This document shows, in pieces, positions 26,959 to 46,964 of a stretch of 64,000 nt of DNA; within the stretch, counting starts at the first letter, position 1, and every line of letters starts with the position of its first letter. A program made the position numbers and the translations under genes. The stretch comes from Holophagales bacterium (GTDB lineage Bacteria > Acidobacteriota > Thermoanaerobaculia > Multivoradales > UBA5704): NCBI GenBank assembly GCA_031390755.1, contig JANMTS010000060.1, positions 700-64,699 on the forward strand, in the 5' to 3' direction. The notes under the pieces are model-generated. The model was not told the origin of the DNA. It worked only from the letters and a program-made list of their open reading frames with translations, and ran no database searches.

Positions 26959-27405
26959 ATGGCGCGCCGAAGCACCGATCCGTACGCGGGCTACCGCTTC
27001 CTCCTCCAGCTCGGGGTGCTGCCCGCGGCCGGCTTTGCCGAGTGCACCGGCCTCCAGGCCGAGACCAAGGTCTTGGACTACGTCGAGGGCGGGCGCAACG
27101 GCACGACCCTCAAGTTCCCGGAGGCCACCGGCTACTCCAACGTCGTGCTCAAGCGGGGGGTCGGCCTCTCGAACGAGCTTCTCTACTGGCAGCTCGACGC
27201 CGCGCACGGGCTCTTCGTTCTCAACCCCCGGCTGGTCGTCAACACCGCCATCGTGCTCCAGGACGAGCGCGGCCGGCCCGTCCGCTTCTGGCTGCTGAAG
27301 CGGGCCTTTCCGGTCAAGTGGACAGGACCGGACCTCAAGGCGGGGGCGAACGAGGTCGCCATCGAGTCGCTGGAGCTCGCCCATGAGGGGATCGTGCCGC
27401 TATGA
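26959..27405 (+). CDS. tail tube protein 2 (paralog)
   Basis: MARRSTDPYAGYRFLLQLGVLPAAGFAECTGLQAE...YSNVVLKRGV...ESLELAHEG. Confidence 0.9.
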   Translation: MARRSTDPYAGYRFLLQLGVLPAAGFAECTGLQAETKVLDYVEGGRNGTTLKFPEATGYSNVVLKRGVGLSNELLYWQLDAAHGLFVLNPRLVVNTAIVLQDERGRPVRFWLLKRAFPVKWTGPDLKAGANEVAIESLELAHEGIVPL

Positions 27406-31796: not shown

Positions 31797-31814
31797 CCCG
31801 CCGGAGACGACGCC

Positions 31815-32456
31815 ATGGCCCTCGAAAAGCTTCGCATCAAAAACCTCGACAGCACAGGGGATTCCATCGACGTCCTCTTCAATCCCGCGGAGTACACCTT
31901 CGAGGACGCCAACGTGTGGGAGGAACAGAAGCACCCGAAACAGAAGTCCGGCACCCAGTTCGTCGGCCGCAGCCTCAAGAAGCTCTCCCTGGAGCTGTTC
32001 TTCGACACCTACGAGGCGGGCGACGACGTGCGCAGGGCGACGAACAAGATCGCCGCCCTCCTCATCCCCATCCCGCAGCAGACACGGCCGCCCCGATGCG
32101 AGATCGTCTGGGGGCCGTCCAAAGAGCTATCGAAAGACTCGCTCTTCGTCTGGGTTCTGGAGAGCCTGAAACAGCAGTTCACCCTCTTCCGCGCCGACGG
32201 CACGCCGGTCCGGGCGCGCCTCACCGTCTCCTTCAAGGAATACATCGAGCCCTCGAAGGAGGAGAAGAGCGACCCCAAGCGGAATTCGTTCCCGGCCAAG
32301 ACCCACACCGTGCATGCCGGCGAGACCCTCGCCGGCATCGCCGGCACGCTCTGGGGCCGGCCCGCCGACTGGCGCATCCTGGCCAAAGCCAACAACATCG
32401 ACAACCCGCTGCGGCTAGAACCAGGCCGCGTGCTCACCGTTCCGGCGATCCCCTGA
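31815..32456 (+). CDS. tube-initiator-like protein with C-terminal LysM domain (Afp7-like)
   Basis: 'IDVLFNPAEYTFEDAN...LSLELFFDT' followed by LysM 'HTVHAGETLAGIAGTLWGRPADWRILAKANNIDNPLRLEPGRVLTVP'. Confidence 0.85.
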   Translation: MALEKLRIKNLDSTGDSIDVLFNPAEYTFEDANVWEEQKHPKQKSGTQFVGRSLKKLSLELFFDTYEAGDDVRRATNKIAALLIPIPQQTRPPRCEIVWGPSKELSKDSLFVWVLESLKQQFTLFRADGTPVRARLTVSFKEYIEPSKEEKSDPKRNSFPAKTHTVHAGETLAGIAGTLWGRPADWRILAKANNIDNPLRLEPGRVLTVPAIP

Positions 32457-32461
32457 GGGAG

Positions 32462-33532
32462 ATGCTCATGGCCGATCCCTCTCTCTCCAGCGTCCACGAT
32501 GCGCCCACCTTCAAGGTGCGCCTCGCCGGCCAGGATCTGCCGACCGCGGCAGCCCTCGACGTGCTCAGCGTGGAGGTCTCCACCCATGTCGAGGGCTCCG
32601 ACATGTTCGCCGTGACCTTCAGCAACTGGGACCAGAACCGCCAGGAGGTCACCTGGACGGAGCGCGACCTGCTGCGCGAAGGCGCGGAGCTGGAGATCCT
32701 GGCCGGCTACGCCCACTCTCTCCAGAGCCTGATGAAGGGCGAGGTGACGGCCCTGGAGCCCGAGTTCCCGTACGACCGGACGCCCACCCTGACGCTGCGC
32801 GGCTACGACCGCCTTCACCGTCTGCGCCGCGGGCGCAAGACCCGCTCGTTCGTGAAGATGAAGGACAGCGAGGTCGCCGGGCGCATCGGCCGCGACCTGG
32901 GGCTCAAGGTCGAGGCCGACGACTCCCAGGTGGTCCACGAGTACCTGCTCCAGAACAACCAGAGCGACGTCGACTTCCTGGTCGAACGGGCGCGCCGCAT
33001 CCGCTTCGAGGTCAAGGTCGAGGACAGGACGCTGCTGTTCCGCAAGACGCCCGACGACCGCACCCAGGTGTTGACCCTCAAGTACGGGCTTACGCTGCGC
33101 AGCTTCTGCCCGCGCCTCAACACCCTGGCGCAGGTCAGCGAGGTGACGGTCCAGGGCTGGAGCCCGAAGCAGCGCGAGGCCATCGCCGGCAAGGCCGGCA
33201 CCGGCGACGCCAAGGCCTCGGGCGGCACCCTGGGGGCCACGCTCGCCGAGCGCGCGTTCTTCGCCGCCAAGGCCGCGGTCGTGGACACGCCGGTCGCTTC
33301 GGCCCAGGAGGCGACGCAGATCGCCCGCGCGCGTTTGAACGAGCTGGCCATGGAGGCGCTGACCGGCGAAGGGCTGGCCGTGGGCGAGCCCGCCCTGCAA
33401 GCCGGCAAGGTGGTGGAGCTGGCCGGCCTCGGCAAGCGTTTCAGCGGCCTGTACTACGTCACCTCGGCCGTCCACCGGATCGACCACGAGGGCTACAGCA
33501 CCGCCTTCACCGTGGCGAGGAACGCGGCATGA
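32462..33532 (+). CDS. late control gene D-like baseplate hub protein
   Basis: Start MLMADPSL (ATG 32462). 'FKVRLAGQDL...VLSVEVSTHVEGSDMFAVTF', 'NQSDVDFLVERARRIRFEV', 'GLYYVTSAVHRIDHEGYSTAFTV'. Confidence 0.85.
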   Translation: MLMADPSLSSVHDAPTFKVRLAGQDLPTAAALDVLSVEVSTHVEGSDMFAVTFSNWDQNRQEVTWTERDLLREGAELEILAGYAHSLQSLMKGEVTALEPEFPYDRTPTLTLRGYDRLHRLRRGRKTRSFVKMKDSEVAGRIGRDLGLKVEADDSQVVHEYLLQNNQSDVDFLVERARRIRFEVKVEDRTLLFRKTPDDRTQVLTLKYGLTLRSFCPRLNTLAQVSEVTVQGWSPKQREAIAGKAGTGDAKASGGTLGATLAERAFFAAKAAVVDTPVASAQEATQIARARLNELAMEALTGEGLAVGEPALQAGKVVELAGLGKRFSGLYYVTSAVHRIDHEGYSTAFTVARNAA

Positions 33533-34188
33533 CGCTCTTCGACCTGCTCACCGACCAGACGGGCCTGGAGGCGCGGCGCGGGCGCGTCCACGGCGCGGTC
33601 GTGGGCATCGTCACCAACAACAAGGACCCGGAGACGCTCGGCCGGGTGAAGGTCAAGTTCCCCTGGCTCACCGACGCCGACGAGAGCCACTGGGCGCGGG
33701 TGGCGACGTTCATGGCCGGCAAGGAGCGCGGCGGCTGGTTCCTGCCCGAGGTGGACGACGAGGTGGTGGTGCTCTTCGAGCACGGCGACGTCCGCTTCCC
33801 CTTCGTCGTCGGCGCGCTCTGGAACGGCGTCGACGCCGCGGCCTACACCAACGCCGACGGCAAGAACAACGTGCGCGCCATCACCTCGCGCAGCGGCCAC
33901 GAGCTGATCTTCGACGACGACTCGAAGAAGGGGCGCCTGGAGATCCACACCAAGGCCGGGCACCGCATCCTGCTCGACGACTCCACCGGCTCCGAGACGA
34001 TCCTGATCGAGGACAAGTCGGGCAACAACAGGATCGAGATGGACGCGGTCAAGGGCTCGATCGCCGTCGAGGCGCAGCTCAAGCTCAGCCTCAAGGCGAA
34101 GACGGTCGAGATCGAGGCGGACATCGCGCTCAAGCTCAAGTCCGGCGCCACCCTGGAGATCCAGGGCACGCTGGTGAAGATCAACTGA
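33529..34188 (+). CDS. gpV/gp5-type spike protein (VgrG-like OB fold + beta-helix)
   Basis: 'GIVTNNKDPETLGRVKVKFPWL...HWARVATFMAGKERGGWFLPEVDDEVVVLFEHGDVRFPFVVGALWNG', then a beta-helical repeat tail. Confidence 0.85.
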   Translation: MTLFDLLTDQTGLEARRGRVHGAVVGIVTNNKDPETLGRVKVKFPWLTDADESHWARVATFMAGKERGGWFLPEVDDEVVVLFEHGDVRFPFVVGALWNGVDAAAYTNADGKNNVRAITSRSGHELIFDDDSKKGRLEIHTKAGHRILLDDSTGSETILIEDKSGNNRIEMDAVKGSIAVEAQLKLSLKAKTVEIEADIALKLKSGATLEIQGTLVKIN

Positions 34189-34194
34189 AAGGAG

Positions 34195-34479
34195 ATGCCC
34201 TTGCCCCCCGCAGCGCGCGTCGGAGATCCCAGCGGCCATCCCGGAGTCGTCACCGGCCCGGGCATCCCCACGGTGCTCATCGCCGGGATGCCGGCGGCCA
34301 CGCTCGGCGACCTCCACACCTGCTCGTTTCCGCCGCCGGCCGTGCATCCGCCCACCCCGATCGCCAAGGGGAGCGCCACGGTGCTCATCGGCGGCAAGCC
34401 GGCGGCGCGGGTGGGCGACATGGCCGGCTGCGGCGCGCCGATCGTGGCCGGCGCCTTCACCGTGCTGATCGGAGGCTAG
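34195..34479 (+). CDS. PAAR domain spike-tip protein
   Basis: 'PAARVGD...GMPAATLGDLHTC...GKPAARVGDMAGCG'. The start may be TTG 34201, given the GGAG at 34191-34194. Confidence 0.9.
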   Translation: MPLPPAARVGDPSGHPGVVTGPGIPTVLIAGMPAATLGDLHTCSFPPPAVHPPTPIAKGSATVLIGGKPAARVGDMAGCGAPIVAGAFTVLIGG

Positions 34480-34488
34480 GGAGACATC

Positions 34489-34881
34489 ATGAGCAAGGAT
34501 TTCCTCGGCAGGGGTTGGACGTTCCCGGTCCAGGTGGACGCCAACGGCGCGATCGCGCTGTCCGTGCAGGAAGAGGACGTGCGCGAGGCGATCCGCGTGA
34601 TCCTCCTCACCAGCCGCGGCGAGCGGCCGATGCGGCCCGACTTCGGCGCCGGTCTCCACGACTATGTGTTCGAGACGCTGAGCGCCACCAACGTCGGCGC
34701 GATCCAGGCGGAGGTCCGGCGCGCCCTGGTCGACTGGGAGCCGCGCATCGAGCTGCTGTCGGTGGACGCCCGGCCCGACTCCGGCGACGTCGGCCGCTTC
34801 CTGCTCGACGTGGACTACAGGGTGCGCTCCACGAACACGCGCTTCAACCTGGTGTTCCCCTTCTATCTGGGAGGCCGGTGA
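34489..34881 (+). CDS. GPW/gp25-family baseplate wedge protein
   Basis: 'FLGRGWTFPV...EDVREAIRVILLTSRGERPMRPDFGAGLHDYVFE'. Confidence 0.9.
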   Translation: MSKDFLGRGWTFPVQVDANGAIALSVQEEDVREAIRVILLTSRGERPMRPDFGAGLHDYVFETLSATNVGAIQAEVRRALVDWEPRIELLSVDARPDSGDVGRFLLDVDYRVRSTNTRFNLVFPFYLGGR

Positions 34882-37805
34882 TGGCGGGCCCGGCGCTTCC
34901 GAAGCTCGACGGCCGCGACCTGGAGGAGCTGCTGCGCGAGGCGCACGCCCTGCGCCCCGTCTACACGCCGGAGTGGAAGGCCGCGGCCGGCGACCCCGGC
35001 ACCGCGATGCTCGAGATCGTGGCCGGGCTCCTGGCCGGGACGATCGAGCGCCTCGACCAGACGCCCGCCCGGCATTTTCTCGCGTTCCTCGACCTGCTCG
35101 GGGTGCAGCTCACCCCGGCCCAGCCGGCGCGGGCGCCGCTGACCTTCGTGCTCAGCGACGGAGCGACCGAGCCGGTGGTGGTCCCCGCCCGTTCCCAGTC
35201 CGCGGCCAAGCCGCCCGAAGGCGGCGACCCGGTGGTCTTCGAGACCGAAAGCGCGTTCGTCGCCACTCCGGCGCAGCTCACGGGGGCTCTGAGCGTGGTA
35301 CCGGGTTCAGGCCTGGACTCCGACCTGATCGTCGACCACCGTCCCGCCCTCGAAGCCGGCGCCGCCTTCGCCCTGTTCACGGGCACCAACCTCCAGGAGC
35401 ATGCTCTCTACCTGGGTCACGATGCCCTGTTCGATGTGACGGGGCCGGTGAAGATCAAGCTCAAGATCGGGCCGTTCCTGGCCCCGGAGTCGGTCGTCTG
35501 GGAGTACTTCGCCGAGACGGAGGCGAAGTGGACGCCCCTGAGCGCCAGCGCGTCGGGGAATCTCCTCGTCCTCACCAAGCGCGAGTCCGGCGCCATCGCC
35601 AGGCTGGCGATCGGCGGCATCGAGCAGCGCTGGATCCGCTGCCGGGCGGTGGAGGCCGGGAACCTGGCCGGGATCGTCATCAACTCGATCGAGGCCAGCG
35701 TCGAGCCGGGTACGCCGGACGAGCCGGGCCTCGCGCCCGACCTCGCCTTCGCCAACGACGTCGAGCTGGCCCTGCAGAGCTTTCATCCCTTCGGCCGCAG
35801 GCCCCGCCTCTTCGACACCTTCTACATCGCCAGCCGCGAGGGCTTCTCGAAGAAGGGCGCGAAGATCTCCCTCGAATTCAAGTGGGAGGCGCCCCTCCCC
35901 GTTTCCTCGCTGGACCTCGTTCTCTCGTGGGAGTACTGGGACAGCCGAGGCTGGCGGGCGATCCTGATCCCAACCCCGAAGACCGAAGCCACCACCGACG
36001 GCCGCACAAGCTTCGCTATCAGCTTCGACTGCCCTGCCGATCTCGCAGCCGTCGAGGTGGCCGGGCAGGAGAATCTCTGGATCCGCGCCCGCATCGTCAG
36101 CGGCGACTATGGCAAGGAGACCTTCAAGCTCGATGCGAAGACAGCCCAGGTTACTCCCGAAAACAATTTCCTGCCCCCGAAGGTCAAGTCCCTGTTGATC
36201 AAGTACGGGATGGAAGCTCTCGTTCCCCAGTACGTCCTGACGCAGAACAACCTCGACCTCCGGGTGTGGGATCTTCAGGATCCTCAAACCCTCCTGCTCC
36301 CCTTCGCCCCCCTGGAGAGCGGACCGCCAGCCCTCCATCTGGGCTTCGACCGGCCCCTGGAGAAGGGTCCGCTGAGCTTCTTCTTCGCCGTCGAGGACCA
36401 CGGGGCCGCCGCGGACGCCCGGCCGCGCGTCGAGTGGCAGTACCTGCGGCGGCGGTCCGGCGAGGCTGCCGCGCAGTGGGCGGCCCTGGAGGTTCTCGAC
36501 GACACCCAGGGGCTGACCCGCAGCGGCACCGTCCAGTTCATCCCGCCGCCGGACCTGGCCCGGGACCGCCGCTTCGGCCTGGACGCCTGGTGGCTCCGCG
36601 CCGCCGCGGCTCCGGCGGCGAAGCTGCGCGGCCTCTACCTCAACACCGCCTGGGCCGTCCAGGGGGAGACGATCGAAGGGGAGCCCCTCGGCTCCGGCAC
36701 CGGCCTCCCCGGCCAGCGGTTCGCCACGGCCAGGGCGCCGGTGAGCGGCGAGGAGGTGTGGGTCGACGAGCTTGGAACGCTCTCCGACGGCGAGCGCAAG
36801 GCCCTGGCCGCGCGGCCGGACGTCCGGGTGCGGCAGCGGACCGACGAGACCGGGCGGCCCCTCGCCTTCGAGATCCTCTGGCGGCCGGTCGCGGATCTCG
36901 CCCTGGCCGGCCCGGGCGACCGGGTCTATGCCGTCGACCGCGCCGCGGGCCTCTTCGAGATGGGCGGCGGCGACCAGGGCCGCGTCGTCCCCCTGGGGCG
37001 GGACAACGTGCGCGCCAGCTACCGGGCCGGGGGCGGCGCGCCGGGCAACGTGCCCGCCGGATCGATCACCGCCCTGCGCACCACCCTGCCGACGGTGGAC
37101 TCGACGGCGAATCCGGTGCCGGCGGCGGGCGGCGCCGACACCGAGCCGCTGGCGCGGGCCCTGGAGCGCGGCCCCCTGGCGCTGCGCCACCGCGGCCGGG
37201 CCGTCACCCGCTCGGACTTCGAGGTGCTCGCCCGCGAAGCCTCCCCCGCGGTGGCGCGGGCGCGCTGCCTGGGCCATTTCGACGAAACGGGCAAGGAGAC
37301 GCCGGGCCGGGTGACCGTCGTGATCGTGCCCGAAAGCCTCGAAGCCCGCCCCTTCCCCACGCCGGCCCTGCGCCAGCGGGTGGAGCGCTTCCTGGCCGGG
37401 AACGCGGCCAACACCGCCGGGGTGCGGGTCGTCGGTCCGGACTATGTCGAGGTCCGCGTCACGGCCGAGCTCGTCCCCCTCGAACCCGGTCTGGCGCCCC
37501 AGGTGGAAGCCGAGGCCTTCCGGCGCCTGGCGGAGCTCCTCCACCCGCTGACCGGCGGCCATGAGGGTCTCGGCTGGGAGTTCGGCCGCCGCCCGGCCCT
37601 GTCGGACTTCTTCCCCCTGTTCGAAGCCCTGCCGGGCGTCGACCACGTCGCGAGCCTCGCCGCGGCCCTGCAGTCGGTGGATTCGGCCGGCAAGCCGTTC
37701 GGCGAGGTCACCGAGATCACCCTGGACCGGCCGGGCGACTCGACCCTGGCCGGCCACGTCCTCGTCTACGGCGGCGACCACCGGCTGCTGAGCCGGATGC
37801 CCTGA
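34881..37805 (+). CDS. large baseplate protein (gp6/J-like, Afp11-like)
   Basis: ATG 34881 overlaps the gp25 stop. 'LPKLDGRDLEELLREAHALRPVYTPEWK...GTAMLEIVAGL' and a C-terminal 'GHEGLGWEFGRRPALSDFFPLFEALPGVDHV' J-type motif. Confidence 0.8.
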   Translation: MAGPALPKLDGRDLEELLREAHALRPVYTPEWKAAAGDPGTAMLEIVAGLLAGTIERLDQTPARHFLAFLDLLGVQLTPAQPARAPLTFVLSDGATEPVVVPARSQSAAKPPEGGDPVVFETESAFVATPAQLTGALSVVPGSGLDSDLIVDHRPALEAGAAFALFTGTNLQEHALYLGHDALFDVTGPVKIKLKIGPFLAPESVVWEYFAETEAKWTPLSASASGNLLVLTKRESGAIARLAIGGIEQRWIRCRAVEAGNLAGIVINSIEASVEPGTPDEPGLAPDLAFANDVELALQSFHPFGRRPRLFDTFYIASREGFSKKGAKISLEFKWEAPLPVSSLDLVLSWEYWDSRGWRAILIPTPKTEATTDGRTSFAISFDCPADLAAVEVAGQENLWIRARIVSGDYGKETFKLDAKTAQVTPENNFLPPKVKSLLIKYGMEALVPQYVLTQNNLDLRVWDLQDPQTLLLPFAPLESGPPALHLGFDRPLEKGPLSFFFAVEDHGAAADARPRVEWQYLRRRSGEAAAQWAALEVLDDTQGLTRSGTVQFIPPPDLARDRRFGLDAWWLRAAAAPAAKLRGLYLNTAWAVQGETIEGEPLGSGTGLPGQRFATARAPVSGEEVWVDELGTLSDGERKALAARPDVRVRQRTDETGRPLAFEILWRPVADLALAGPGDRVYAVDRAAGLFEMGGGDQGRVVPLGRDNVRASYRAGGGAPGNVPAGSITALRTTLPTVDSTANPVPAAGGADTEPLARALERGPLALRHRGRAVTRSDFEVLAREASPAVARARCLGHFDETGKETPGRVTVVIVPESLEARPFPTPALRQRVERFLAGNAANTAGVRVVGPDYVEVRVTAELVPLEPGLAPQVEAEAFRRLAELLHPLTGGHEGLGWEFGRRPALSDFFPLFEALPGVDHVASLAAALQSVDSAGKPFGEVTEITLDRPGDSTLAGHVLVYGGDHRLLSRMP

Positions 37806-37819
37806 AGGAGAGCGAAGCC

Positions 37820-39547
37820 ATGGCCCTGCCTCTGCCCGTGCTGGACGACCGGACCTTCGAGGAGATGGTGGCCGAGGCCTTGCGCCTGGCGCCGCAGCGG
37901 GCGCCGGCCTGGACCGACCACAATCTCAGCGATCCGGGCGTCACCCTGGTCGAGCTGTTCGCCTGGCTCACCGAGATGCAGCGCTATCGCCTCGACCGGC
38001 TGCGCGAGGAGAGTCTGGTCAAGCTCCTGGGCCTGGTCGGCATGCAGCCGCGGCCCGCCACCCCGGCGCGAGCCGCGGTCGCGGTGTCGGCCCCGCAGAC
38101 GACGTTCCTGCCGCTCGGCACCCCCCTCCGGCTCGGCGGCGTCTCCTTCAGCACGGAGGAGGACATCACCGTGGTGCCGGCGAGACTCGCGAGGATCCTC
38201 ACCTCCTCGCGCGCCGGCCAGGTGGACGAGACCGCCGCCAACGACGGCGAAGGTCTCTCCTTCTTCGCCTTCGGTCCCGATGCCGAGGCGGGGAGCCGCC
38301 TCTATCTCGGCTTCAGCGAGCCTCTTCCCGCCGAGGTGGGCTTCAGCCTCGACCTCGTCCTCTACGAGGGCTACCCTGCCGCGCGCGGCGAGCATGGCGA
38401 GGAGCCGCCGAGGATCACGCCTTCCGCCCGCATCGAGTGGGAGGCGCTCTCCGGCGGCGGCTGGCTCCCGCTGGAGATCCTCGGCGACGAGACCGTGATG
38501 CTGTCGCTGCCCGGGCGCCTGCGCTTCCGCCTCGCCTCGCCGCTGGATGCCGCCGAGCTGCCGCCGATCCCCGGCGAGCTCTCCTGGCTGCGGGCCACGG
38601 TGGTGGAGCCCGGCTACGAGCTGCCGCCGCGCCTGGCCGCCGTGCGCTGGCAGACGGTGCCGGCGGTCGAAGCGACCGACGAGAACGCCGCGGCCGACGA
38701 GGACGCCGAGGACGACCCGGGCAGCCTCGGTCTGCGGACCGGCGCCGGCAACGTGGACCGCGGCGCCGCCGTCGCTCTCGCGGGGCCGCTCCCGGGCGGC
38801 GAGGGCCTGGTCTTCTCGCTGCCCGCGGCGGCCACCGGGGGCACGGACCGCGAGACCGTGGACGCGGCCCGCCTGCGCCTGCGCCGGGACAAGCTCACCC
38901 TCTGGCGCGCGGTCAACGATGCCGACTTCGAGGCCCTGGCGAAGGCCACGCCGGGGCTGCGCGTCGCCCGCACCTGGTCCCTGTCCGGGCAGTCCCTGTC
39001 CGGGCTCACACCGGCGACTCCAACCGCATCGGCGACGGTCACCGTGATCGTCGTGCCGTTCAGCGAGGCCGCCAAGCCCGTGCCCAGCTCCGGCTTCCTC
39101 CGCACCGTCCGCTGCCATCTCGACCGCCATCGCCTGCTCACCACGCAGGTCCGCGTCGTGGGGCCGGACTACGTGGAGGTCGGCGTCGAGGCCGGTCTCG
39201 TCCTCCAGGCCGGAGCCGGCCGGGACGCCGTGCTCGCCCGGGCCGCCGCGGCCCTCGGCGTCTTTCTCCATCCCCTGCAAGGAGGCCCTGCCGGGGAGGG
39301 ATGGCCCTTCGGCCGGCCGGTCTATCTGTCGGAGGTCTACGCGGCCCTGGAGGCCGTGGCCGGAGTGGACGCCGTCGAGCGGGTGGCCGTCTCCGCCGGA
39401 GCTGGGAGCGGCGTCTCCCGCGACGAGCGGGGGAATCTGCTCATCCCGTCCACCAGTCTGGTCTTCTCCGGCGCGCACCGGCTCACCGTCGTGGAGCGGG
39501 AAGGCGCTCTCTGCCGGGTGAAGCCGGCCCCGGGAGCCCGGTCATGA
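37820..39547 (+). CDS. baseplate J-like protein 2 (Afp12-like)
   Basis: '[21 protein letters not shown]...[20 protein letters not shown]' and a C-terminal '[28 protein letters not shown]'. Confidence 0.75.
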
Positions 39548-41712
39548 CGTGCGGCCAGGACAGCCCGTCCGTCCTCCGGCTGCGCGACGCCGCCGACTGG
39601 GAGCGCGGTTTCGCGTTCCGCCTCCGGATCTCCGCCGCCGGGCTCGACCTGGAGCCGAAGAAGGAGCACGCGCTCTCCCCGCTCGTCCAGGAGATGCCGG
39701 ACGCCACCTTCCTCGGCCACGTCGCCCTGGCCCGCGGGCGGTGCCAGGAGGTCTTCGTGCTGGAGTCGCCGACCGGCTCCCTGCTCCGGTTCGACGGCGG
39801 CCGCTTCGAGCACCTCGCCACCCCGGGCGCGGCGCTCCAGGCGCCCACGCTCCTCGCCTGGTTCCCCGGGCGCCTGTTCGTGGCCGGCGGCCCGAGCCCG
39901 CAACGCATGGTGGCCCTGGACGAAGCCACGTCGAGGGCCTTGTGGGCGGTGACCGACCAGCGCGACGGCCGCGGCCAGCCGCTTCCGCCCGGCGCTTCGC
40001 CGTTCCTCCCCGCCGCCCTGGCGGGCGACCGGACGCGGCAGCGGCTCTACGCCCTGATCCCCCTCCAGGCGAGCCAGGCCGCGAAAGCCCCCGACATCCA
40101 GCTCGCAATCGCCGTCTTCGGCCCGGGCGGCCGGCTTCTGCGCCTCCTGACCCCTCCCGGTCTCCGCCTCGACGAGGCCGCCCTGGCCAAGACCGATCTC
40201 GCCGTGGCCCCGGACGGCACGCTCTACATCCTGGACTCCCTGGGCCGGCGGGTCTTCGCCTTCGATCCCGAGAAGGACCGTCTGCGCAGCTTTCCGGTCA
40301 ACGAGCGCCCGAAGCCGGACACGATGACCGGCGTCGGCACCGGCACCGGCACCGGCACCGAAACCGAGACCTTCCGCATCCAGCCCGCCGGCCTGGCCGT
40401 CGGCGACGATGGCGTCCTCTACCTGGGAGACCTGCGGCGCGTGCCTCCGGCCGGCCAGGACGACGACCGGCTCATCCACCGTTTCGACGCCGACGGCAAG
40501 TATCTCGGACCGGTGGCCGGCTACCGCGGACCGGTGTCGGCGCTCGCCGTGGGGCCGGGCTCGCGCATCGTGCTCTTCGACCCCGGCACCCGGCACGCCG
40601 GCCAGGAGCCGGCCCTGTCCGAGCGGCGCCTGCGCGTGCTCCTCCAGCGCGACTCCCTGGACGGCGCGCGCGGCGTCTACTACTCGCCGCCGCTCGACAG
40701 CCGGGAGACCGGCATGCTCTGGCACAAGCTCACCCTTCCCGGCGCCCGGATCCCCGGCCACAGCCAGGTCCAGATCTCGTGGCGGGCGATCACGGACCCG
40801 GAGGAGGACGGCGGCGAGGACGAGCGGAAGATCTACGAAGACCTCCTGGAAGCCGGGGACAAGGTGGGCCTCGACCGGCTCCGCTGGTCCCCGCCGCTCG
40901 TGAACGTCCGCGACGCCCTCGTCCGGGAGGCGCCCGCGCGCTATCTCCGCGTGCGGGTGCTGCTGATGGGTGCGGGCCAGGATGCCCCTCAGGTGCCGGG
41001 CCTCGAAGCCTGGTTCCCGCGCACGTCCCTGCTGCGCCACCTGCCCGCGGTCTACCAGGAGATCCGCAGCGGCCACAATTTCCTGGAGCGCTTCCTGGCC
41101 CTGTTCGAGACCCTGTTCACCAGCATCGACCGGCAGATCGACGACCTGCCGGACCTGTTCGATCCGGACACCACCCCCTCCGGCTTCCTGCCCTGGCTCT
41201 CCTCGTGGCTCGCGCTCACCCCGGACGAAGCCTGGCCGGAGGAGCGCCGCCGCGCCCTGCTGCGCGACGCGCACGAGCTCTACCGGCTGCGGGGCACCCG
41301 CGAGGGTCTGGCGCGCCTGATCGAGACCCTCACCGGCGCCCGGCCGCTGATCGTCGAGCCGTTCCAGCTCGCGTGCGCCGAAGCCCCCGAGATGAAGACG
41401 CTGCTGGCGAGGCTCCATTGCCCGGACCCGTTCTGCTTCTCCGTCCTGCTCCGGCCCTTCCAGGTGAGCAGCGACGACGAGCTGCGCGCCATCCGCCGCC
41501 TCGTGGAAGACGAGTCCCCAGCCCACACCTCGCCCTGCGTACGGCGCCTCGAGCCCCTGGCGCAGCTCGACCGGCACACCTACCTGGACGTCAACACCTA
41601 TCTCAAGCTCCCCGCGGCGCGGCTCGACACCGGAACCGTCCTGGGGCGCGACTCGCTCCTGGGCGGCGCCGAGCCTCCGGACGAGCTGGCAACCGACGAA
41701 GGAGAACCGTGA
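39544..41712 (+). CDS. NHL-like beta-propeller fused to phage tail protein I-type domain
   Basis: ATG 39544 (ATGA overlap). NHL-like '[18 protein letters not shown]' and 'DGVLYLGDL'. C-terminal 'LPAVYQE...[46 protein letters not shown]...[12 protein letters not shown]', as in P2 gpI-type tail proteins. Confidence 0.7.
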
Positions 41713-43388
41713 TGGCCAACCCGACCCCGACCGCGGAGAGCAATCTGCTCCGCCTGGAAAAGAACAACTATTTCCCAGGCAAGCTGCTGACCAGCCGCGA
41801 CTGCCAGGATGAGCAGGACTTCCACAACGAGAAGCGCCGCCTGCTCAGCCGGCTCACCCTCGGCCGCGGCGTGGTCCGCGGCCTCAAGACCAGCCTCGAC
41901 GCCGCGGCCGGCCCCCTGGGCATCCGCGTCACCCGCGGCATGGCCATCGACGCCTGGGGCCGGGAGATCGTCGTCGACGCCGACCAGAGCCGCAGCCTGA
42001 ACGTGCTGCTGCCTGAGCTCGCGGCAGGGACGTACACCCTGCGCCTGGCCTACGACCAGATGCTCCGCGAGCCCGTGCCCTCGCCCGATTCGACCTGCGA
42101 CGAGACCTGCCAGAACAACCGGATCCGCGAGATGTTTGTGCTCAAGCTCGGCACCGGCATCGTCGAGCCGCGGCCGGACACCTGGAGCACCACGGTCACC
42201 CTCGTCGAAACGCCGACCTGGAAGCTCGTCCGCAAGACGCCGCGATGGATCAGGACGGGGGAGACGGCCGACGTCTGGCTGGGCCTCCTCGGCCAGAACG
42301 GCCTTGCCGTGCCGGCCGGCACCACCGTCGACGTGACCGAAAAGCTCACCGGCCTGACGCCGGCCCAGGCCACCTTCAAGCTGACCCAGGACGACCGGAT
42401 CAAGACCTATTCCGTGAAGGCCGGCACTCCCGGCACCACGGCCACCATCACCGCCGCGGTCACCCCGGGGTTTCCCACCGTGGAGCTGACCAGCAGCCTG
42501 CGGATCATCGCCGGATCGGTCGCGGACCGCCTCGTCAAGGCGTTCTTCGAAGAGCAGGGGGAGTACCAGGATCCGCCCGCCAACCCGGATGTTCCCCTGG
42601 CCACCGTCGTCGTCGAAGGCTCCGGCGACAGCCGCCGGATCGCGAGCGTCACTCTCTTCCCGGGCCAGCAGTTCGTCTACGGCAACGACATCCTTTTCGA
42701 CGTCCTGACCCTCCTGGAGCAGCGGACCGGAGCCACCGGCCCCAAGGGCGATCCGGGAGCCCAGGGGAACCCTGGACCCAAGGGAGATCCGGGACCGCAG
42801 GGACCGAAGGGCGATCCGGGAGGCTCCGGCCCGGGGAACCAGGGACCTCCGGGACCGGTGGGGCCTCCGGGGCCTCGCGGCCCGGCCGGCGCTCAGGGGC
42901 CTGCGGGACCGGCGGGACCCGGGCGTGTCAACTTCGGCATCGAGGAGATCACCCTGACCGGCCAGCTCACGACCTACAAGGTCGCCTCCTCGGGATTCCT
43001 GCGCCCGAACTTCTGCGTCATGGTGGCGCCCAAGGTCCAGCCCAACCTGGCGACGCTCCCCCCCGACACCGTGCCCCTGTTCGTCTTCGGCGAGACCTTC
43101 CCCACCGACCCCAAGCCCCTCTTTGTCCGGGCGTTCATCCCCGTCGACTCCTCGGGAGCGTTCTACATCCAGATCTATTCGGAGACCGTGCAGCCGAAGA
43201 AGGTCCGCGTCTCCTGGATCGCCGTCGAAGGCCAGTTCGTCGGCCCCGGCCCCCTGCCGCCGGAGCTGGCCAACCTCGGCCCCGCCGCCGCGCCCACCGC
43301 ACCGGCTGCACCGGCCGCGAAGCCCAGGACCGCCAAGAAGACCGCCAAGGCCGGGACGCCCCGCAAGCCGCGGAGCCGGAAGGCCTGA
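41712..43388 (+). CDS. tail fibre-like protein with collagen-like G-X-Y tract
   Basis: ATG 41712 overlaps the upstream TGA. About 65 residues of G-X-Y ([28 protein letters not shown]...) are encoded at 42729-42923. Lys/Arg-rich C-terminal tail. Confidence 0.65.
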
Positions 43389-43403: not shown

Positions 43404-46400
43404 ATGGCGCGGCATGCTCCAGCGAAGTCCGGTCCGACGAAGCCCGGACCTTCCCAGCCGGGACCCCGCCCGGCTCCGGGCAAGCGCGCCCAGCATCCGG
43501 TCCTCGCCCTCCAGCAGGCCGCCGGCAACCGCGCCGTCGGCCGCCTGATCGAGGCCCGCAAGGAGGAGCGCAAATCCCGGCTCGATCCCCTGGAGCCTGA
43601 AGTCTCTCCCGAAGCCACGCCCAGGATCGCGGCCCGCGAGGCCGAAGCGGAAGCCCCGGCGAAGCAGGCCGCTCCGGTGAAGGAGCCGGCCGGGGCCGCT
43701 GTGGAACCTCCCGCTCCGGCAGCCACGCTGGCAGCCGCGCCGGCAAACGCTCCGGTGGTTGCTCCGGTGGCGGCGGCACCGGAGCCGGCCGCGGTCGAGG
43801 CGGCGCCGGCCGTGTCTGCGGAATCGGGAGGATCGGCCGCACCGGCAGTCCCGGAGGCTTCGGCAGAGCCGGCGCTGGTAGCGCCCGAAATTGCTCCCAA
43901 AACTGCGCCCGAGGCGGCATCCGCAGCCCCGCCACCTACTGGCGAGGGAGCCCCCCCTGCCCCAGCGCCGGAAGCCGGGGCCGCCGCACCGGCTCCGGAG
44001 CCTGCCGGTGAGCAGGCTCCGACCTCTCCGGAGCAGGATCCGGCTTTTCAGGCTGTCGTGGCCCGCATCGAAGGCGTCGCTCGCCAGAAGAAAAGCCACG
44101 TCCCCGCCCGCGCCGCCGCCGCGAAAGCCCAGGCCGCCGCCGTCGATCCGCCCAACGCCGCTTCCGCCCATGCGGCCGGCGCCCAGGTCGGCAAGATGGA
44201 CGCCCAGCAGCCGCGCCCCTTCGACCGGGCCGCCTTCAAGGCCGCCCTGCTCGCGAAGGTCGCGTCCGTCACGCCTCAGACCCTCGAAGCGGCCGACGAA
44301 TTCAAGTCGAGCGGCAAGGCCGGCGACATCAAGACCGCGGTCACCGCCCGGGTGGCCGCAGGCAAGGACCAGGCCCAGGGTGCCATCCAGAAGGCCGCCA
44401 CCGAGACCCCCTCCCCGGGCGGCTTCCATCCCCGGCCCGCCTCCGCCCTGGCTCCCCCCGATCCCGGCCCGCCGCCCCCGGACCTCGCCGCCGGCCAGGC
44501 GGCTCCCAAGCCCAAATCCGAAGCCGAGATCGAAGCCCCTCTCGCCGCCTCCAGCCAGCGGCTCGACGAGCCGATGACCGCCGCGGGCGTCACCGAGGCC
44601 CAGCTCGAACGCTCCAACGAGCCTGCCTTCCAGGACGCCCTCCAGGCGAAGCGCGAGGCCCAGGACAACGCCAGTCAGGCTCCGGCCGCCTACCGGGCCG
44701 CTGAAAAGGGCACCCTCGCCGTGGCCGCCGGACAGGCGCGGACCTCGGCCCGGGACCGGACGGCGGCCATGCACGGAGCCCGCGGCACGCTCCTCGCCCA
44801 GGTCGCCGGCCGGCAGCTCGGAGCCAAGGCCGCCGACGAGCAGCGCCGCGCCGAGGTCGCGCGCCGCATCGAGGGGATGTACCAGACCACCAGAGGCGAG
44901 GTGGAGGCCCGTCTCTCTCTTCTCGACCGGCAGGTGCAGGCGATCTTCGACCGCGGAGCCGGCGCCGCCCGCCGCGCCTTCGAAGACCACGTCGCGCACC
45001 GCATGGCGGCCTACAAGGAGAAACGCTACAAAGGGGTCAAGGGCTTGCTGCGCTGGGGAAAGGACAAGCTCTTCGGCATGCCCTCCGAGGTCAACGCCTT
45101 CTACGTCGAGGGACGCGACCTCTATGTCCGGACGATGGACGGAACCCTCGACGAGATCGCGACCACCGTCGAGTCCGGTCTCCTCCAGGCCAAGGCGCTC
45201 ATCGCCGTCGGCCGGCAGCAGACCGAGACCTACGTCGCGGGGCTCCCCGGCGACCTCCAGCAGGTCGGCCGGGAAGCGGCCGACGGCATCCAGGCCCGGT
45301 TCGCGGCGCTGGAGCAGAGCGTCGCCGACAAGCAGGGCCAGCTCGTCGAGGATCTCGCCCGCAAGTACGCCGAAAACCTGCAGCAGGTCGACGCCCGCGT
45401 CACGGAGATGAAGGAGGCCGACCGCGGCCTCGCGGACAAGGCCGGCGAGGCTCTCGGCGGCGTCCTGCGCACTCTCGCCGAGCTCAAGGAGATGCTGTTC
45501 TCGGTCCTGGCGCGGGCGGCCGGTGTCATCGGCACCATCCTCCAGGATCCCATCGGCTTCCTGGGCCACCTGGTGGACGGCGTCCGGCTCGGCCTCTCGG
45601 GCTTCGTCTCCAACCTCGGCGAGCACCTCAAGAAAGGCGTCCTCGAATGGCTCTTCGGCGCCCTGGGAGAAGCCGGCCTCCAGATTCCCGAGAGCTTCGA
45701 CCTCAAGGGCATCCTGGGCCTCATCCTCCAGGTGCTCGGCCTCACCTACGTCAAGATTCGGGCACGCGCGGTGGCCATCGTCGGCGAGCCCGTCGTGAGC
45801 GCCCTGGAGAAGACCGCCGAGGTCTTCAAGATCCTCGTCACCGAGGGGCCGGCAGGCCTGTGGCGCTTCATCCAGGACAAGCTCGCCGAGATCAAGGAGA
45901 CCGTGCTGGAAGGCCTCAAGTCCTTCCTCATGGAAAGCGTCATCAAGGCCGGCATCACCTGGCTCCTGAGCCTGCTCAATCCGGTCGCGGCGTTCATCAA
46001 GGCCTGCAAGGCGATCTACGACATCGTGATGTTCTTCGTCACGCGCGCCGCGCAGGTCATGGCCCTGGTCTCCTCGATCCTCGACTCGATCGCAGCCATC
46101 GCCTCCGGCGCCATCGCCGAGGCTGCGGCGGCGGTGGAGAAAGCGCTAGCCAAGACCATCCCGGTCGTCATCGGCTTCCTCGCGAGCCTGCTCGGCCTGG
46201 GAGGAATCTCCGACAAGATCCGCGAGGTCATCCAGGCCATCCAGGCTCCCATCAACAAGGCCGTCGACGCGGTCATCCACCAGGCGGTCAAGACCGCCAC
46301 GGCCGTGGGCGGCCTCTTCAGCGGCGGAAAGAAGAAGGAGGAAAAGCCTGTCCCGGAGACCGGGGATCTGGAGCACGACGCGAAGGTGGCAGCGGGGTTG

Positions 46401-46964
46401 GCGGCGATCGACGTAGAGGAAGCACATTACCCCGAGACCGGTATCACTCAGGATCAAGCTGAAAGGGTCGCCGCAAAGGTGCAAGCCGGGCACCCCGTCT
46501 TTAAGTCGCTCGCAGTGGTAGATAGTGGCGAGAGCTGGGATTACGATTACGTCGCTAGTCCCGGGCGGCGCAAACGCGGCGCAAGAAAAAGTAAACAGCC
46601 TGGTAGAACGACAGCTCTCTCAGGTAGACCAGCAGAAGAGGCGGTATCGAACGCCACGGGTGTTCCATTGAATGTTGGCACTGGCAGAGATACAATCCCC
46701 GGAAGTGGGCCAGGCAGGGTAAGGTTTCCAGACCTCAAGATTTTTGGCCTCGAAGGTTCAATTATTCAGCGCGGTTCCATTATCGAGGTCAAAGATGTAA
46801 AAAGACTCCAGGGTCGTCGGCAAATCAGAGATCTGATCGCTTACGCACGTTCCAAAAGCCTTGTGATTGAAATTTACAGCGACGCCTCCATACCCTCCAG
46901 AGGAGTGATTGCCGACGCCGTTGCGACTGGCTTGGTAGTGCTCAAAGGGATACCCAAGCGATGA
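43404..46964 (+). CDS. putative eCIS payload/polymorphic-toxin-like protein (disordered N-terminus, long helical core, C-terminal PD-(D/E)xK-like module)
   Basis: N-terminal 'VLALQQAAGNRAVGRLI' motif. About 200 aa of Ala/Pro-rich low complexity. Hydrophobic helical core (GFLGHLVDGVRLGLSGF...LQVLGLTYVKIRA...). C-terminal 'RFPDLKIFGLEGSIIQRGSIIEVKDVK'. Confidence 0.6.
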   Translation: MARHAPAKSGPTKPGPSQPGPRPAPGKRAQHPVLALQQAAGNRAVGRLIEARKEERKSRLDPLEPEVSPEATPRIAAREAEAEAPAKQAAPVKEPAGAAVEPPAPAATLAAAPANAPVVAPVAAAPEPAAVEAAPAVSAESGGSAAPAVPEASAEPALVAPEIAPKTAPEAASAAPPPTGEGAPPAPAPEAGAAAPAPEPAGEQAPTSPEQDPAFQAVVARIEGVARQKKSHVPARAAAAKAQAAAVDPPNAASAHAAGAQVGKMDAQQPRPFDRAAFKAALLAKVASVTPQTLEAADEFKSSGKAGDIKTAVTARVAAGKDQAQGAIQKAATETPSPGGFHPRPASALAPPDPGPPPPDLAAGQAAPKPKSEAEIEAPLAASSQRLDEPMTAAGVTEAQLERSNEPAFQDALQAKREAQDNASQAPAAYRAAEKGTLAVAAGQARTSARDRTAAMHGARGTLLAQVAGRQLGAKAADEQRRAEVARRIEGMYQTTRGEVEARLSLLDRQVQAIFDRGAGAARRAFEDHVAHRMAAYKEKRYKGVKGLLRWGKDKLFGMPSEVNAFYVEGRDLYVRTMDGTLDEIATTVESGLLQAKALIAVGRQQTETYVAGLPGDLQQVGREAADGIQARFAALEQSVADKQGQLVEDLARKYAENLQQVDARVTEMKEADRGLADKAGEALGGVLRTLAELKEMLFSVLARAAGVIGTILQDPIGFLGHLVDGVRLGLSGFVSNLGEHLKKGVLEWLFGALGEAGLQIPESFDLKGILGLILQVLGLTYVKIRARAVAIVGEPVVSALEKTAEVFKILVTEGPAGLWRFIQDKLAEIKETVLEGLKSFLMESVIKAGITWLLSLLNPVAAFIKACKAIYDIVMFFVTRAAQVMALVSSILDSIAAIASGAIAEAAAAVEKALAKTIPVVIGFLASLLGLGGISDKIREVIQAIQAPINKAVDAVIHQAVKTATAVGGLFSGGKKKEEKPVPETGDLEHDAKVAAGLAAIDVEEAHYPETGITQDQAERVAAKVQAGHPVFKSLAVVDSGESWDYDYVASPGRRKRGARKSKQPGRTTALSGRPAEEAVSNATGVPLNVGTGRDTIPGSGPGRVRFPDLKIFGLEGSIIQRGSIIEVKDVKRLQGRRQIRDLIAYARSKSLVIEIYSDASIPSRGVIADAVATGLVVLKGIPKR

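Follow-up and report, generated by a model that had tools for sequence, protein, structure and literature searches.

Is the gene that closes the contractile injection system (CIS) operon of this 64,000-nt stretch of DNA (the window) a toxin delivered by that CIS, and is the gene overlapping its end the antidote? The 1186-aa open reading frame has exactly the boundaries, strand and ATG start given in the initial annotation (Table 1). A GGAGG Shine-Dalgarno sequence lies 5 nt 5′ of the ATG, which follows the stop codon of a collagen-like fibre gene by 15 nt on the same strand, making this the final gene of a complete CIS operon. The eCIS context proposed for it was borne out, with sheath, tube, ATPase, baseplate, spike and fibre genes all upstream on the toxin strand; the operon comprises two sheath and two tube genes, DUF6760, a Pvc16_N cap, an AAA+ ATPase (27901-30177), a 540-aa gene, a LysM tube initiator, a VgrG-related gene, spike OB, gp25, Baseplate_J, Tail_P2_I/NHL and the fibre. 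On the sequence evidence, the product of the gene is probably a polymorphic toxin that serves the adjacent CIS as an effector and is paired with a cognate immunity protein.

Table 1. Positions of the toxin gene, its parts and its surroundings in the window
Feature	Residues or length	Position (nt)	Strand	Basis
CIS structural operon		22546..43388	+	Pfam, NCBIfam
Whole gene, probable CIS-associated polymorphic toxin	1186 aa	43404..46964	+	ORF, Shine-Dalgarno and ATG, homologue family
N-terminal amphipathic helix, candidate recognition or loading element	32-59	43497..43580	+	AF2, motif
LQQAAGNRAV motif within the N-terminal helix	36-45	43509-43538	+	Six-frame translation
Disordered Ala/Pro/Glu-rich spacer	60-204	43581..44015	+	Composition, pLDDT, alignment
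Conserved all-helical core	205-975 (771 aa)	44016..46328	+	Alignment, AF2, hydropathy
Small folded alpha/beta linker or pre-toxin domain	976-1050	46329..46553	+	pLDDT, conservation, breakpoints
Basic linker and predicted Tox-REase-7 (PD-(D/E)xK) nuclease tail	1051-1186	46554..46964	+	Pfam, homologues, AF2
Predicted catalytic residues of the tail	E1078, D1110	46635-46637, 46731-46733	+	Invariant columns
Predicted catalytic residues of the tail	E1128, K1130, Q1140	46785-46787, 46791-46793, 46821-46823	+	Invariant columns
Predicted cognate immunity protein	274 aa	46961..47785	+	ATGA overlap, homologues
ATPase gene (AAA_16 + PDDEXK_9) within the variable segment	550 aa	47994..49646	-	Pfam
Segment absent from syntenic loci L001 and L010		46550..49988		blastn synteny, GC profile

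The protein has five parts (N-terminal helix, disordered stretch, helical core, linker domain and tail), and comparison with its homologues indicates that head, core, linker domain and tail are independently evolving modules. The polymorphic-toxin architecture claimed for it held up: the core is common to 34 homologues whose tails are unrelated, the 76 tails derived from genomes fall into 32 clusters, and two syntenic relatives carry other tail and immunity cassettes. The helical region itself is real, and at about 770 aa is longer than the roughly 600 aa first estimated. Of the hydrophobic helices thought able to enter membranes, two transmembrane-like stretches were found (~861-905 and 914-939), of borderline hydropathy (KD 1.6-1.9), and no others reach such values. 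AlphaFold2 (AF2) models residues 407-714 as very long helices and residues 716-968 as a hydrophobic helix bundle. Alignment occupancy across the core is 1.0 and identity 0.4-0.7 among the 34 homologues, 33 of which have a core of 763-785 aa, across phyla; no Pfam or NCBIfam model matches it. Core relatives occur in at least 529 species-level genomes, archaea included, and CIS genes usually adjoin them: they were present in all six loci inspected (L001, L002/3, L007, L008, L009, L095), and CIS homologues lie within 8 kb of the core in 46 of 80 genome loci. The tails on these cores include AHH (in one case followed by Imm11), Ntox15, Endonuclea_NS_2, WHH/Colicin-DNase (in one case followed by SUKH/SMI1_KNR4) and an APOBEC-like deaminase. 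By these distributions, the core acts as a carrier for many unrelated toxin tails, is widespread and is linked to CIS.

Very long helices and a near-constant core length would also suit a tape measure, and the protein might be, or double as, that structural ruler, occupying the tube while the particle assembles and ending in a toxin, a role proposed for Streptomyces davawensis Tme (PMC11126660). A weak PHROG match (tape measure phrog_1272 against residues 678-968, E 0.0011) points the same way, as do the named top BFVD Foldseek matches, nearly all of them tape-measure or minor-tail proteins, and the canonical tape-measure slot of the operon holds as its sole unassigned gene the 540-aa one (30174-31796), which is repeat-rich, not obviously helical and without a homologue in any of the fetched loci. 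However, none of the tape-measure signals reaches significance (in BFVD, E ≥ 0.04 with TM-scores < 0.11), and the tape-measure relationship described for Tme and Sle1 (PMC11126660, PMC13277306) was not reproduced for the core family: its profile found no PDB tape-measure chain, a tblastn search of 50,697 phage genomes with the core gave no match, and hhalign with the phage Chi tape measure returned a probability of 6.8%. Core relatives number one in 2.9 million viral contigs, against at least 529 in genomes. The gene is terminal, past the fibre gene rather than between tube and baseplate genes, and a Pilimelia homologue lies outside the structural operon, where the tape-measure position is filled by that operon's own 821-aa gene. 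Because of gene position and the negative homology tests, we consider a tape-measure role unlikely and the core the carrier of an effector.

Between core and tail, the linker domain (C-terminal end ...HPVFKSLAVVDSGESWDYDYV) is modelled by AF2 with a pLDDT of 91-96 and is semi-conserved among homologues. The basic linker RRKRGARKSKQ (residues 1056-1066) and the FPD-x17-EVK motif (D1110, E1128-V-K1130) noticed earlier are both present, and the latter is not a chance occurrence, because its residues are invariant columns in an alignment of 32 homologous tails. The subfamily invariants (G1074xxxE1078, D1110, E1128xK1130, Q1140) agree with the published Tox-REase-7 signature (GxxxE, IxD, ExK, Q). 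The window's own tail scores 23.1-23.6 bits against PF15649, under the Pfam gathering threshold of 25, and 30 of its 32 tail relatives match that model. Among 120 tail homologues, 54 of 56 full matches have no more than 6 residues between the domain and the C-terminus, and scaffolds bearing this tail type include Rhs/PAAR, Tc-toxin and PT-HINT. The AF2 model of the 115-aa tail (pLDDT 92.4) has the order alpha-beta-beta-beta-alpha-beta, and the elements that bear the catalytic residues are those expected. The suggested PD-(D/E)xK C-terminus is accordingly related to Tox-REase-7, with every signature residue present and a matching topology. Foldseek, put forward as a check on this fold, failed to find a significant restriction-endonuclease-fold match in the PDB (best E 0.16; nuclease-fold matches to MspJI, Card1 and EndoMS, E 0.28-0.71); the fold is therefore assigned from the sequence family and the topology. 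By that evidence, the tail is predicted to be a Tox-REase-7 PD-(D/E)xK nuclease domain with its catalytic set intact.

The start of the 274-aa gene overlaps the toxin stop codon (ATGA), and the two are translationally coupled. Its proposed immunity function agrees with the placement of its 37 homologues: in all three cases with an upstream toxin, the homologue lies directly 3′ of an Rhs-type toxin with the same tail (tail and immunity identities to the window pair are 63% and 49% in L004, 45% and 37% in L091, and 41% and 40% in L006). One homologue occupies a polyimmunity-like array after Tox-REase-5 and Imm52 and another stands as an orphan, placements typical of immunity genes. That the protein is instead an accessory factor (loading chaperone or adaptor) or the product of an unrelated gene seems quite improbable. 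Pfam offers no immunity family model for it, its similarity to TsiV is weak (E 0.035, 13.9 against a threshold of 25 bits; weak TsiV matches recur in 6 of 32 relatives), and many eCIS toxins have no immunity gene (Geller 2021, PMC8213781; Zhang 2012, PMC3482391); yet the gene co-varies with the tail and not with the carrier, has homologues in none of 80 other core-family loci and is low in GC, like the tail. As a cognate immunity protein, it would resemble TsiV (DUF3396, PF11876), an immunity protein about 270 aa long that neutralises the PD-(D/E)xK-superfamily T6SS effector TseV, although the TseV toxin domain is VRR-NUC rather than Tox-REase-7; nor does its family belong to the immunities listed for Tox-REase-7 toxins (ImmHEAT, Imm23, Imm54).

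The recent history of the pair can be read from L001 and L010, close relatives that keep the window's flanks and carry different tail and immunity cassettes. In blastn comparisons, collinearity with L001 extends to nt 46549 of the window and that with L010 to nt 46309; these junctions lie at the two ends of the linker domain. Collinearity with both resumes at about nt 49985. The tail and immunity part (46550-47950) has a GC content of 51-55%, against about 72% in the flanks. Judged by synteny and composition, the tail and the 274-aa gene are a mobile pair, found on Rhs toxins too, which recently replaced other cassettes in the window lineage by recombination at the linker-domain borders. The 550-aa ATPase gene, for which none of the fetched loci holds a homologue, is probably an independent insertion outside the toxin module.

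At the other end of the protein, the expected N-terminal motif proved to be LQQAAGNRAV, which turns up just once when the whole window is translated in all six frames and is present in about 22 of 35 metagenomic and 26 of 71 genomic core-family members; its helix has a pLDDT of 72-81. The motif can indeed precede DUF4157: 9 of the 71 family members show this arrangement, as does a Pilimelia DUF4157 protein. The HExxH zincin core was correctly stated to be absent here, and no DUF4157-like ORF was found anywhere in the window (positive control of the search, 5e-34). The absence of this usual eCIS effector marker counts against the effector reading. The Ala/Pro/Glu low complexity was also confirmed (A 30%, P 20%, E 11% over residues 1-204), with about 140 disordered residues (60-199) at pLDDT < 40 and low occupancy and identity of the spacer among homologues. 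Core-family heads are interchangeable, and in AlgoCIS cargo loading needs the disordered N-terminal region and an AAA+ ATPase, DUF4157 being dispensable (bioRxiv 10.64898/2026.05.27.728243). Non-CIS delivery, as a stand-alone toxin-antitoxin or otherwise secreted toxin adjoining the operon by chance, would fit the missing DUF4157 and a mobile cassette found elsewhere on non-CIS scaffolds, but is very improbable given that CIS linkage across distant phyla is consistent and involves the core itself, not the tail alone, that the gene so closely follows the fibre gene, that related heads bear DUF4157/HExxH in about half of members, and that the Pilimelia homologue is positioned like Sle1/Sle2.

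As a CIS effector, the window toxin resembles PVC-type toxins (Zhang et al. 2012, PMC3482391) and EATs (Geller 2021, PMC8213781; Danov 2024, PMC11297309) in lying at the operon's 3′ end and in having a disordered N-terminus and a long region separating the head from a variable C-terminal toxin domain. EATs were described with 'very long linkers, occasionally more than 1000 aa' (PMC8213781), whereas here the 'linker' is a conserved family of constant length. The window toxin's relatives carry DUF4157 (PVC-metallopeptidase), which the window lacks in cis and nearby; the window has a clear predicted immunity gene, and its toxin domain, Tox-REase-7, does not appear among those with PVC delivery in Zhang's table (PMC3482391). 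AlgoCIS Cgo1/Cgo2, as described (PMC8894135), likewise combine a disordered N-terminal loading region, optional DUF4157 and a variable C-terminal effector; they carry DUF4157, unlike the window toxin, and the window encodes a homologue of the AAA+ ATPase on which their loading depends. Also similar in description are Tme (PMC11126660) and Sle1/Sle2 (PMC13277306), large helical proteins in which long coiled-coil-like helices accompany a hydrophobic helical hairpin and a C-terminal functional domain that varies; Tme and Sle1 are CIS-loaded. The variable domain is an EndA-like nuclease in Tme and, in Micromonospora eburnea, a deaminase that comes with immunity. The Pilimelia core-family member (P0030) is divergent from the sheath gene and adjoins a 240-aa DUF4157 gene, as described for Sle1/Sle2, and another member (P0033) also has a deaminase tail. 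These systems are from actinomycetes, whereas the window toxin comes from a Holophagales-like acidobacterium, is terminal in its operon and has no DUF4157 partner. Rhs, CdiA and T6SS toxins with Tox-REase-7 (PF15649) share the nuclease domain, the homologous downstream gene and classic C-terminal displacement at a conserved pre-toxin junction (the window tail is 63% identical to that of a 3524-aa Rhs toxin), but display it on an Rhs shell, a CdiA filament or PAAR scaffolds rather than on a CIS helical core.

We propose that the 274-aa protein would protect the producer cell and its immune kin by binding and neutralising the nuclease. During assembly, the N-terminal helix and disordered region would be recognised, probably with the help of the Pvc15-like AAA+ ATPase, and the toxin, mostly helical, would be threaded in a partly unfolded state into the tube lumen. 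Sheath contraction would then expel the toxin, the hydrophobic core helices would interact with the membrane of the target and ease the passage of the C-terminal nuclease into the cytoplasm, and the nuclease would degrade the nucleic acid, DNA most likely, of a target bacterium without the immunity gene. The CIS itself may be released or, like that of Streptomyces, may act within the cell. Membrane insertion by the core, loading via the disordered N-terminus and the bacterial nature of the target are what we infer may happen. A weapon of this type, in which a modular toxin joins a conserved carrier to an exchangeable tip and is accompanied by an antidote gene, is already known, and the window gene is a well-supported additional example of it.

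The gene that ends this Holophagales bacterium's operon for an extracellular contractile injection system (eCIS) encodes a predicted CIS-associated polymorphic toxin. The initial annotation had proposed as much after noticing a disordered N terminus, a hydrophobic helical center and a nuclease-like C terminus; that observation was confirmed, and its interpretation is supported by what follows. The predicted reading frame was borne out as well, with an ATG start, a length of 1186 aa, a GGAGG Shine-Dalgarno sequence 5 nt 5′ of the start and only 15 nt between the start and the stop codon of the preceding gene. The toxin gene terminates a complete eCIS operon on the same strand, and a gene for a 274-aa protein begins within its stop codon (cgATGAac; ATGA coupling). 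At the level of sequence, the toxin has a modular architecture, a core that is linked to CIS genes and an intact Tox-REase-7 catalytic set. By DNA synteny, an uncultured MAG of the Holophagales (Acidobacteriota) comes closest among named genomes, at 76-88% nucleotide identity. The location of a sigma-54 enhancer-binding activator gene and a CarboxypepD_reg-domain gene directly 5′ of the first sheath gene suggests that this CIS is under sigma-54-dependent control.

Features of the toxin locus (nucleotide positions in the window) and modules of the toxin (residue numbers)
Feature	Position	Strand	Details
Sigma-54 activator; CarboxypepD_reg-domain protein	19737-21026; 21328-22260	+	directly 5′ of first sheath gene; activator counted with CIS operon
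Two sheath genes and two gp19-type tube genes		+	CIS operon, upstream of toxin
DUF6760; Pvc16_N cap		+	CIS operon, upstream of toxin
WHD/AAA+ Pvc15-like ATPase	27901-30177	+	CIS operon
540-aa ORF	30174-31796	+	between ATPase and LysM tube initiator; repeat-rich
LysM tube initiator		+	CIS operon, upstream of toxin
VgrG-related protein; spike OB domain		+	CIS operon, upstream of toxin
gp25; Baseplate_J; Tail_P2_I with NHL		+	CIS operon, upstream of toxin
Collagen-like fibre	41712-43388	+	CIS operon
Toxin	43404-46964	+	1186 aa
Toxin, head	residues 1-59		ends in predicted helix 32-59 (pLDDT 72-81) bearing LQQAAGNRAV
Toxin, disordered spacer	residues 60-204		pLDDT <40
Toxin, conserved core	residues 205-975 (44016-46328)		alignment occupancy 1.0, identity 0.4-0.7
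Toxin, linker	residues 976-1050		semi-conserved; predicted small alpha/beta domain, pLDDT 91-96
Toxin, tail	residues 1051-1186		no equivalent among the 34 homologues
Predicted immunity gene	46961-47785	+	274 aa
AAA_16/PDDEXK_9 gene	47994-49646	-	550 aa; C-terminal nuclease-like PDDEXK_9

Searching for homologues yielded 34 relatives, 1050-1780 aa in length; aligning these and following the conservation profile along the query delimited five modules. When the whole window is translated in six frames, the LQQAAGNRAV motif of the head turns up a single time. Residues 1-204 are rich in A (30%), P (20%) and E (11%), and AlphaFold2 (AF2) assigned pLDDT values below 40 to residues 1-31 and 60-199, in keeping with a disordered N-terminal region. 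The core is modeled as a series of very long helices (407-542, 562-613, 616-673 and 676-714), with pLDDT above 90 across residues 480-670, and a bundle of shorter hydrophobic helices (716-968; 41% ILVFMW), while transmembrane-like hydropathy within the core is confined to residues 861-905 and 914-939. Pfam and NCBIfam hold no model for the core, with which only spurious apolipoprotein-type matches were obtained, and an NCBIfam scan of the toxin, the immunity gene and the unassigned CIS genes found none for the first two. The toxin has neither a match to PF13699 (DUF4157) nor an HExxH sequence, and the 64-kb window holds no DUF4157-like ORF.

The core defines a widespread family. When 185,579 species-representative genomes were scanned, at least 529 relatives came to light, in phyla that include Acidobacteriota, Cyanobacteria, Chloroflexota, Actinomycetota, Bacteroidota, Myxococcota, Verrucomicrobiota and Pseudomonadota, and in archaea (Nitrososphaera and Methanosarcinales). 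CIS genes were present at all six homologue loci that were inspected with gene calls, and a simple tblastn search, which gives a lower bound, placed CIS homologues no more than 8 kb away in 46 of 80 fetched genome loci, 28 of these having sheath, tube or baseplate matches and 18 the Pvc15-like ATPase only. The core is common to 34 homologues with unrelated tails, among them AHH, Ntox15, Endonuclea_NS_2, WHH/Colicin-DNase and APOBEC-like deaminase domains, some of which are followed by immunity genes of the Imm11 or SUKH/SMI1_KNR4 families; 76 complete tails from genomes fall into 32 clusters. The heads vary too. With HExxH taken as a proxy for DUF4157 in the genomic set, 71 complete members comprise 26 with the LQxxxGN motif, 37 with HExxH, nine with both and 17 with neither. 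On this count DUF4157 is present in about 37 of the 71; in another set of relatives it is present in 7 of 35. The head in the window has the LQxxxGN motif without DUF4157. Together with the downstream co-varying gene and the cassette displacement described below, a common core with unrelated tails gives this family the sequence hallmarks of polymorphic toxins (Zhang 2012, PMC3482391).

Core length hardly varies between Actinomycetota, Cyanobacteria and archaea: whatever the phylum, 33 of 34 homologues have a core of 763-785 aa, and the remaining one is truncated. The heads and tails of the same proteins (P0002-P0035) differ several-fold. In a Nitrososphaera MAG (L017) and a Methanosarcinales MAG (L034), cores 44-52% identical to the bacterial query lie beside an ATPase or Tail_P2_I homologue, which suggests either inter-domain spread of a CIS effector family or binning contamination. 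In a Longimicrobium-like locus (L002/L003, 10001-22037), two large eCIS_core (DUF4157) effectors of 1430 aa and 2161 aa stand in tandem directly behind the AAA+ ATPase, and a small gene (184-190 aa) comes after each; the arrangement resembles an effector-immunity array closing a CIS locus. At the locus of homologue P0003 (L007, 14166-14631), a toxin with an unannotated tail is followed by genes of 66 aa and 86 aa, the latter with a weak ParE-like match, and by no typical immunity gene.

Comparison of syntenic loci indicates how the tails are replaced. The locus of P0002 (L001), a toxin 78% identical to that of the window, is collinear with window positions 33989-46549 and 49989-55404, and its toxin ends in an AHH nuclease followed by Imm11; in the Holophagales locus L010, collinearity extends over 38784-46309 and 49981-55336, and the 3′ end is different again. 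The three loci compared are non-collinear only at 46309/46549-49988, with breakpoints near residues 968 and 1049 at either border of the linker domain, and GC content drops from about 0.75 to 0.51-0.55 over the tail and immunity gene. Between 46500 and 50000, no leftovers of displaced cassettes were found besides the shared linker. At the level of sequence, tail and predicted immunity gene form a mobile pair that was recently exchanged, the C-terminal cassette having been displaced among close relatives. Three near-identical loci with three different tail and immunity cassettes represent a clean natural case of payload swapping, and its defined junctions, at both ends of a small folded linker domain, should be directly useful for engineering programmable CIS cargo. 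The AAA_16/PDDEXK_9 gene also lies within the variable segment, which both syntenic relatives lack. It was rejected as part of the toxin module because no homologue turned up in the fetched loci; it has the look of a gene inserted independently and may be defence-related.

The exchanged tail of the window toxin is predicted to be a Tox-REase-7 nuclease domain with an intact catalytic set. Its own score against PF15649 (23.1-23.6 bits) lies below the gathering cutoff of 25, and a word-indexed search with the tail alone gave a single match. HMMER, run exhaustively against 1.84 billion representatives, retrieved 120 homologues (69 with E ≤ 1e-10), and the domain stops no more than 6 residues short of the protein C terminus in 54 of the 56 full-length matches. 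Among 32 aligned tail homologues, 30 match PF15649 at E ≤ 0.01 (best 1.1e-11; relatives 40-61% identical), and P0036, which is 57% identical to the window tail, has a precomputed PF15649 match. Columns E1078, V1081, N1090, D1110, E1128, K1130, Q1140 and P1164 of this alignment are invariant and G1074 is nearly so. They confirm the FPD-x17-EVK motif that the initial annotation had picked out, and the tail matches the complete Tox-REase-7 signature of GxxxE, IxD, ExK and Q (Zhang 2012, PMC3482391) with G1074xxxE1078, F-P-D1110, E1128-V-K1130 and Q1140. An AF2 model built with the alignment (pLDDT 92.4, pTM 0.84) has the order helix(E)-strand-strand(D)-strand(ExK)-helix(Q)-strand, which is the alpha-beta-beta-beta-alpha-beta order of the restriction-endonuclease fold, with E carried by helix 1, D preceding strand 2, ExK lying in strand 3 and Q in the helix after it. 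In the structural comparison that had been proposed as a check on this fold, Foldseek returned no significant match in the PDB (best E 0.16), and its whole-domain alignments were only to PD-(D/E)xK nucleases (MspJI, Card1 and EndoMS, E 0.28-0.71). Because of this, the fold assignment rests on family membership and topology and not on a structural match. A PDB sequence search with the tail had as its sole match a designed repeat protein, which we attribute to chance, and an apparent similarity to the tails of L011 and L021 was rejected, the alignment being confined to the linker domain.

Tails of the window type are found elsewhere on PAAR+Rhs, SpvB/TcdB Tc-toxin-like and PT-HINT/PT-TG scaffolds. 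The CIS core was not found in the Tox-REase-7 representatives, where the single partial match (P0192) covers only the linker part of the query, and in 11 papers that mention Tox-REase-7 it is not linked to eCIS.

The 274-aa gene is, judging by the company its homologues keep, a predicted cognate immunity gene. None of its 37 homologues has a Pfam annotation. One of them (P0038, 49% identical; L004) is encoded directly 3′ of a 3524-aa Rhs toxin with a tail 63% identical to that of the window (E 6e-55), a second (P0040, 40%; L006) follows a 915-aa Rhs protein that has a Tox-REase-7 match and a tail of 41% identity, and a third (P0043, 37%; L091) follows a 1603-aa protein with a tail 45% identical to the window's. 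A further homologue (P0059; L092/L093) belongs to a small-gene array downstream of Tox-REase-5 and Imm52, and another (P0073; L090) is an orphan in Micromonospora. From these contexts, and since the 80 other core-family loci contain no homologue of it, the gene tracks the tail and not the carrier. The protein scores 13.9 bits against TsiV (PF11876; cutoff 25, E 0.035), an immunity family for VRR-NUC effectors, and 6 of 32 relatives show weak matches (best E 0.001). It is best treated as a putative new or very divergent immunity family, and it belongs to none of those listed for Tox-REase-7, namely ImmHEAT, Imm23 and Imm54 (Zhang 2012, PMC3482391).

Long helices invite the alternative that the protein has a structural role, as the tape measure of the particle, and a weak PHROG 1272 match at residues 678-968 (E 0.0011) points in that direction. 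The top Foldseek matches of the full-length model in BFVD are also tape measures, but at E ≥ 0.04 they are not significant, and TM-scores carry no meaning where helices are so extended. Against such a role, the family profile found no tape measure among PDB chains, tblastn with the core found no match in 50,697 phage genomes, hhalign against the Chi tape measure, the one used in the Sle1 paper, gave a probability of 6.8%, and 2.9 million viral contigs contained one relative only, beside a Pvc15-like ATPase. Furthermore, the toxin gene is terminal, after the fibre gene, and does not lie between the tube/assembly and baseplate hub genes as an Afp14/Pvc14-like gene would; this canonical slot is taken by the 540-aa ORF. 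We consider a tape-measure function quite improbable. The 540-aa ORF itself has no family match and no homologue in any fetched locus. It is rich in G, R, A, T and P and contains internal direct repeats (two copies of 166 nt at 92% identity and two of 135 nt at 79%), which are flanked by two 44-nt palindromic elements (CCCCTCTCCCGG...CCGGGAGAGGGG; 30509-30552 and 31418-31461), and GC3 backs its frame less strongly than those of the neighbouring genes.

An effector role, as favored here, places the protein among known CIS cargo. Polymorphic toxins that depend on PVC delivery and have the PVC-metallopeptidase (DUF4157) at their head have been defined, many of them without immunity genes (Zhang 2012, PMC3482391), and DUF4157 has been used as an eCIS 'core' marker, separated from the toxin domains by very long linkers (Geller 2021, PMC8213781). 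Nagakubo et al. have reported Tme (BN159_7576), which joins an EndA-like nuclease to DUF4157 and to a tape-measure-like region that has transmembrane helices (PMC11126660), and Sle1/Sle2-type effectors of Actinobacteria with variable C termini, one being a deaminase with an immunity gene (PMC13277306). The window toxin shares with Tme and Sle1-type proteins the long coiled-coil-like helices, the hydrophobic helical hairpin (861-905, 914-939) and the variable C-terminal domain, and the length (1044 aa) and architecture of Sle1 (SLIV_17115) are compatible with the window family. The Pilimelia member (P0030, L008) is oriented divergently from the sheath gene and adjoins a 240-aa DUF4157 protein bearing the motif variant MQCLAGNAGV, which is the published Sle1/Sle2 arrangement; in the window, a small Sle2-like DUF4157 partner beside the sheath gene is absent. 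From the Pilimelia arrangement, we think that the window family probably includes, or is closely allied to, Sle1-type effectors. Loading of AlgoCIS cargo requires a disordered N-terminal region and an AAA+ ATPase and can dispense with DUF4157 (bioRxiv 10.64898/2026.05.27.728243), which fits a toxin that lacks it; by analogy, the disordered N-terminal region of the window toxin may act as a loading signal.

We propose that the toxin would be steered into the tube lumen by its N-terminal helix and its disordered region together with the AAA+ ATPase, that the hydrophobic core helices would help the nuclease across the target membrane after contraction, and that the nuclease would then attack nucleic acid in a cell without the immunity gene, probably a bacterium, the 274-aa protein neutralising it in the producer. 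Surveys of eCIS have not found a conserved sequence-specific recognition signal. A broader reading, which we offer tentatively and consider doubtful, is that the 771-aa core is a universal DUF4157-independent CIS carrier and translocation module, the LQxxxGN helix such a recognition signal and the linker a natural payload splice point; the core would ride in the tube lumen, its hydrophobic helices would enter the target membrane and any C-terminal toxin would be carried across.

With the toxin read as a CIS-delivered nuclease, its novelty is modest: Tox-REase-7 on a CIS carrier is a new toxin domain associated with CIS delivery, it is paired with a previously unannotated putative immunity family, and the conserved motif stands in a head free of DUF4157. 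What eCIS surveys have called a 'long linker' corresponds to a conserved, unannotated family of constant length, found in many phyla including archaea and with defined swap junctions. The clear predicted immunity gene at this locus speaks for the use of at least this CIS against bacteria, or for a need of self-protection, and is thereby relevant to the lack of such genes beside many eCIS toxins.
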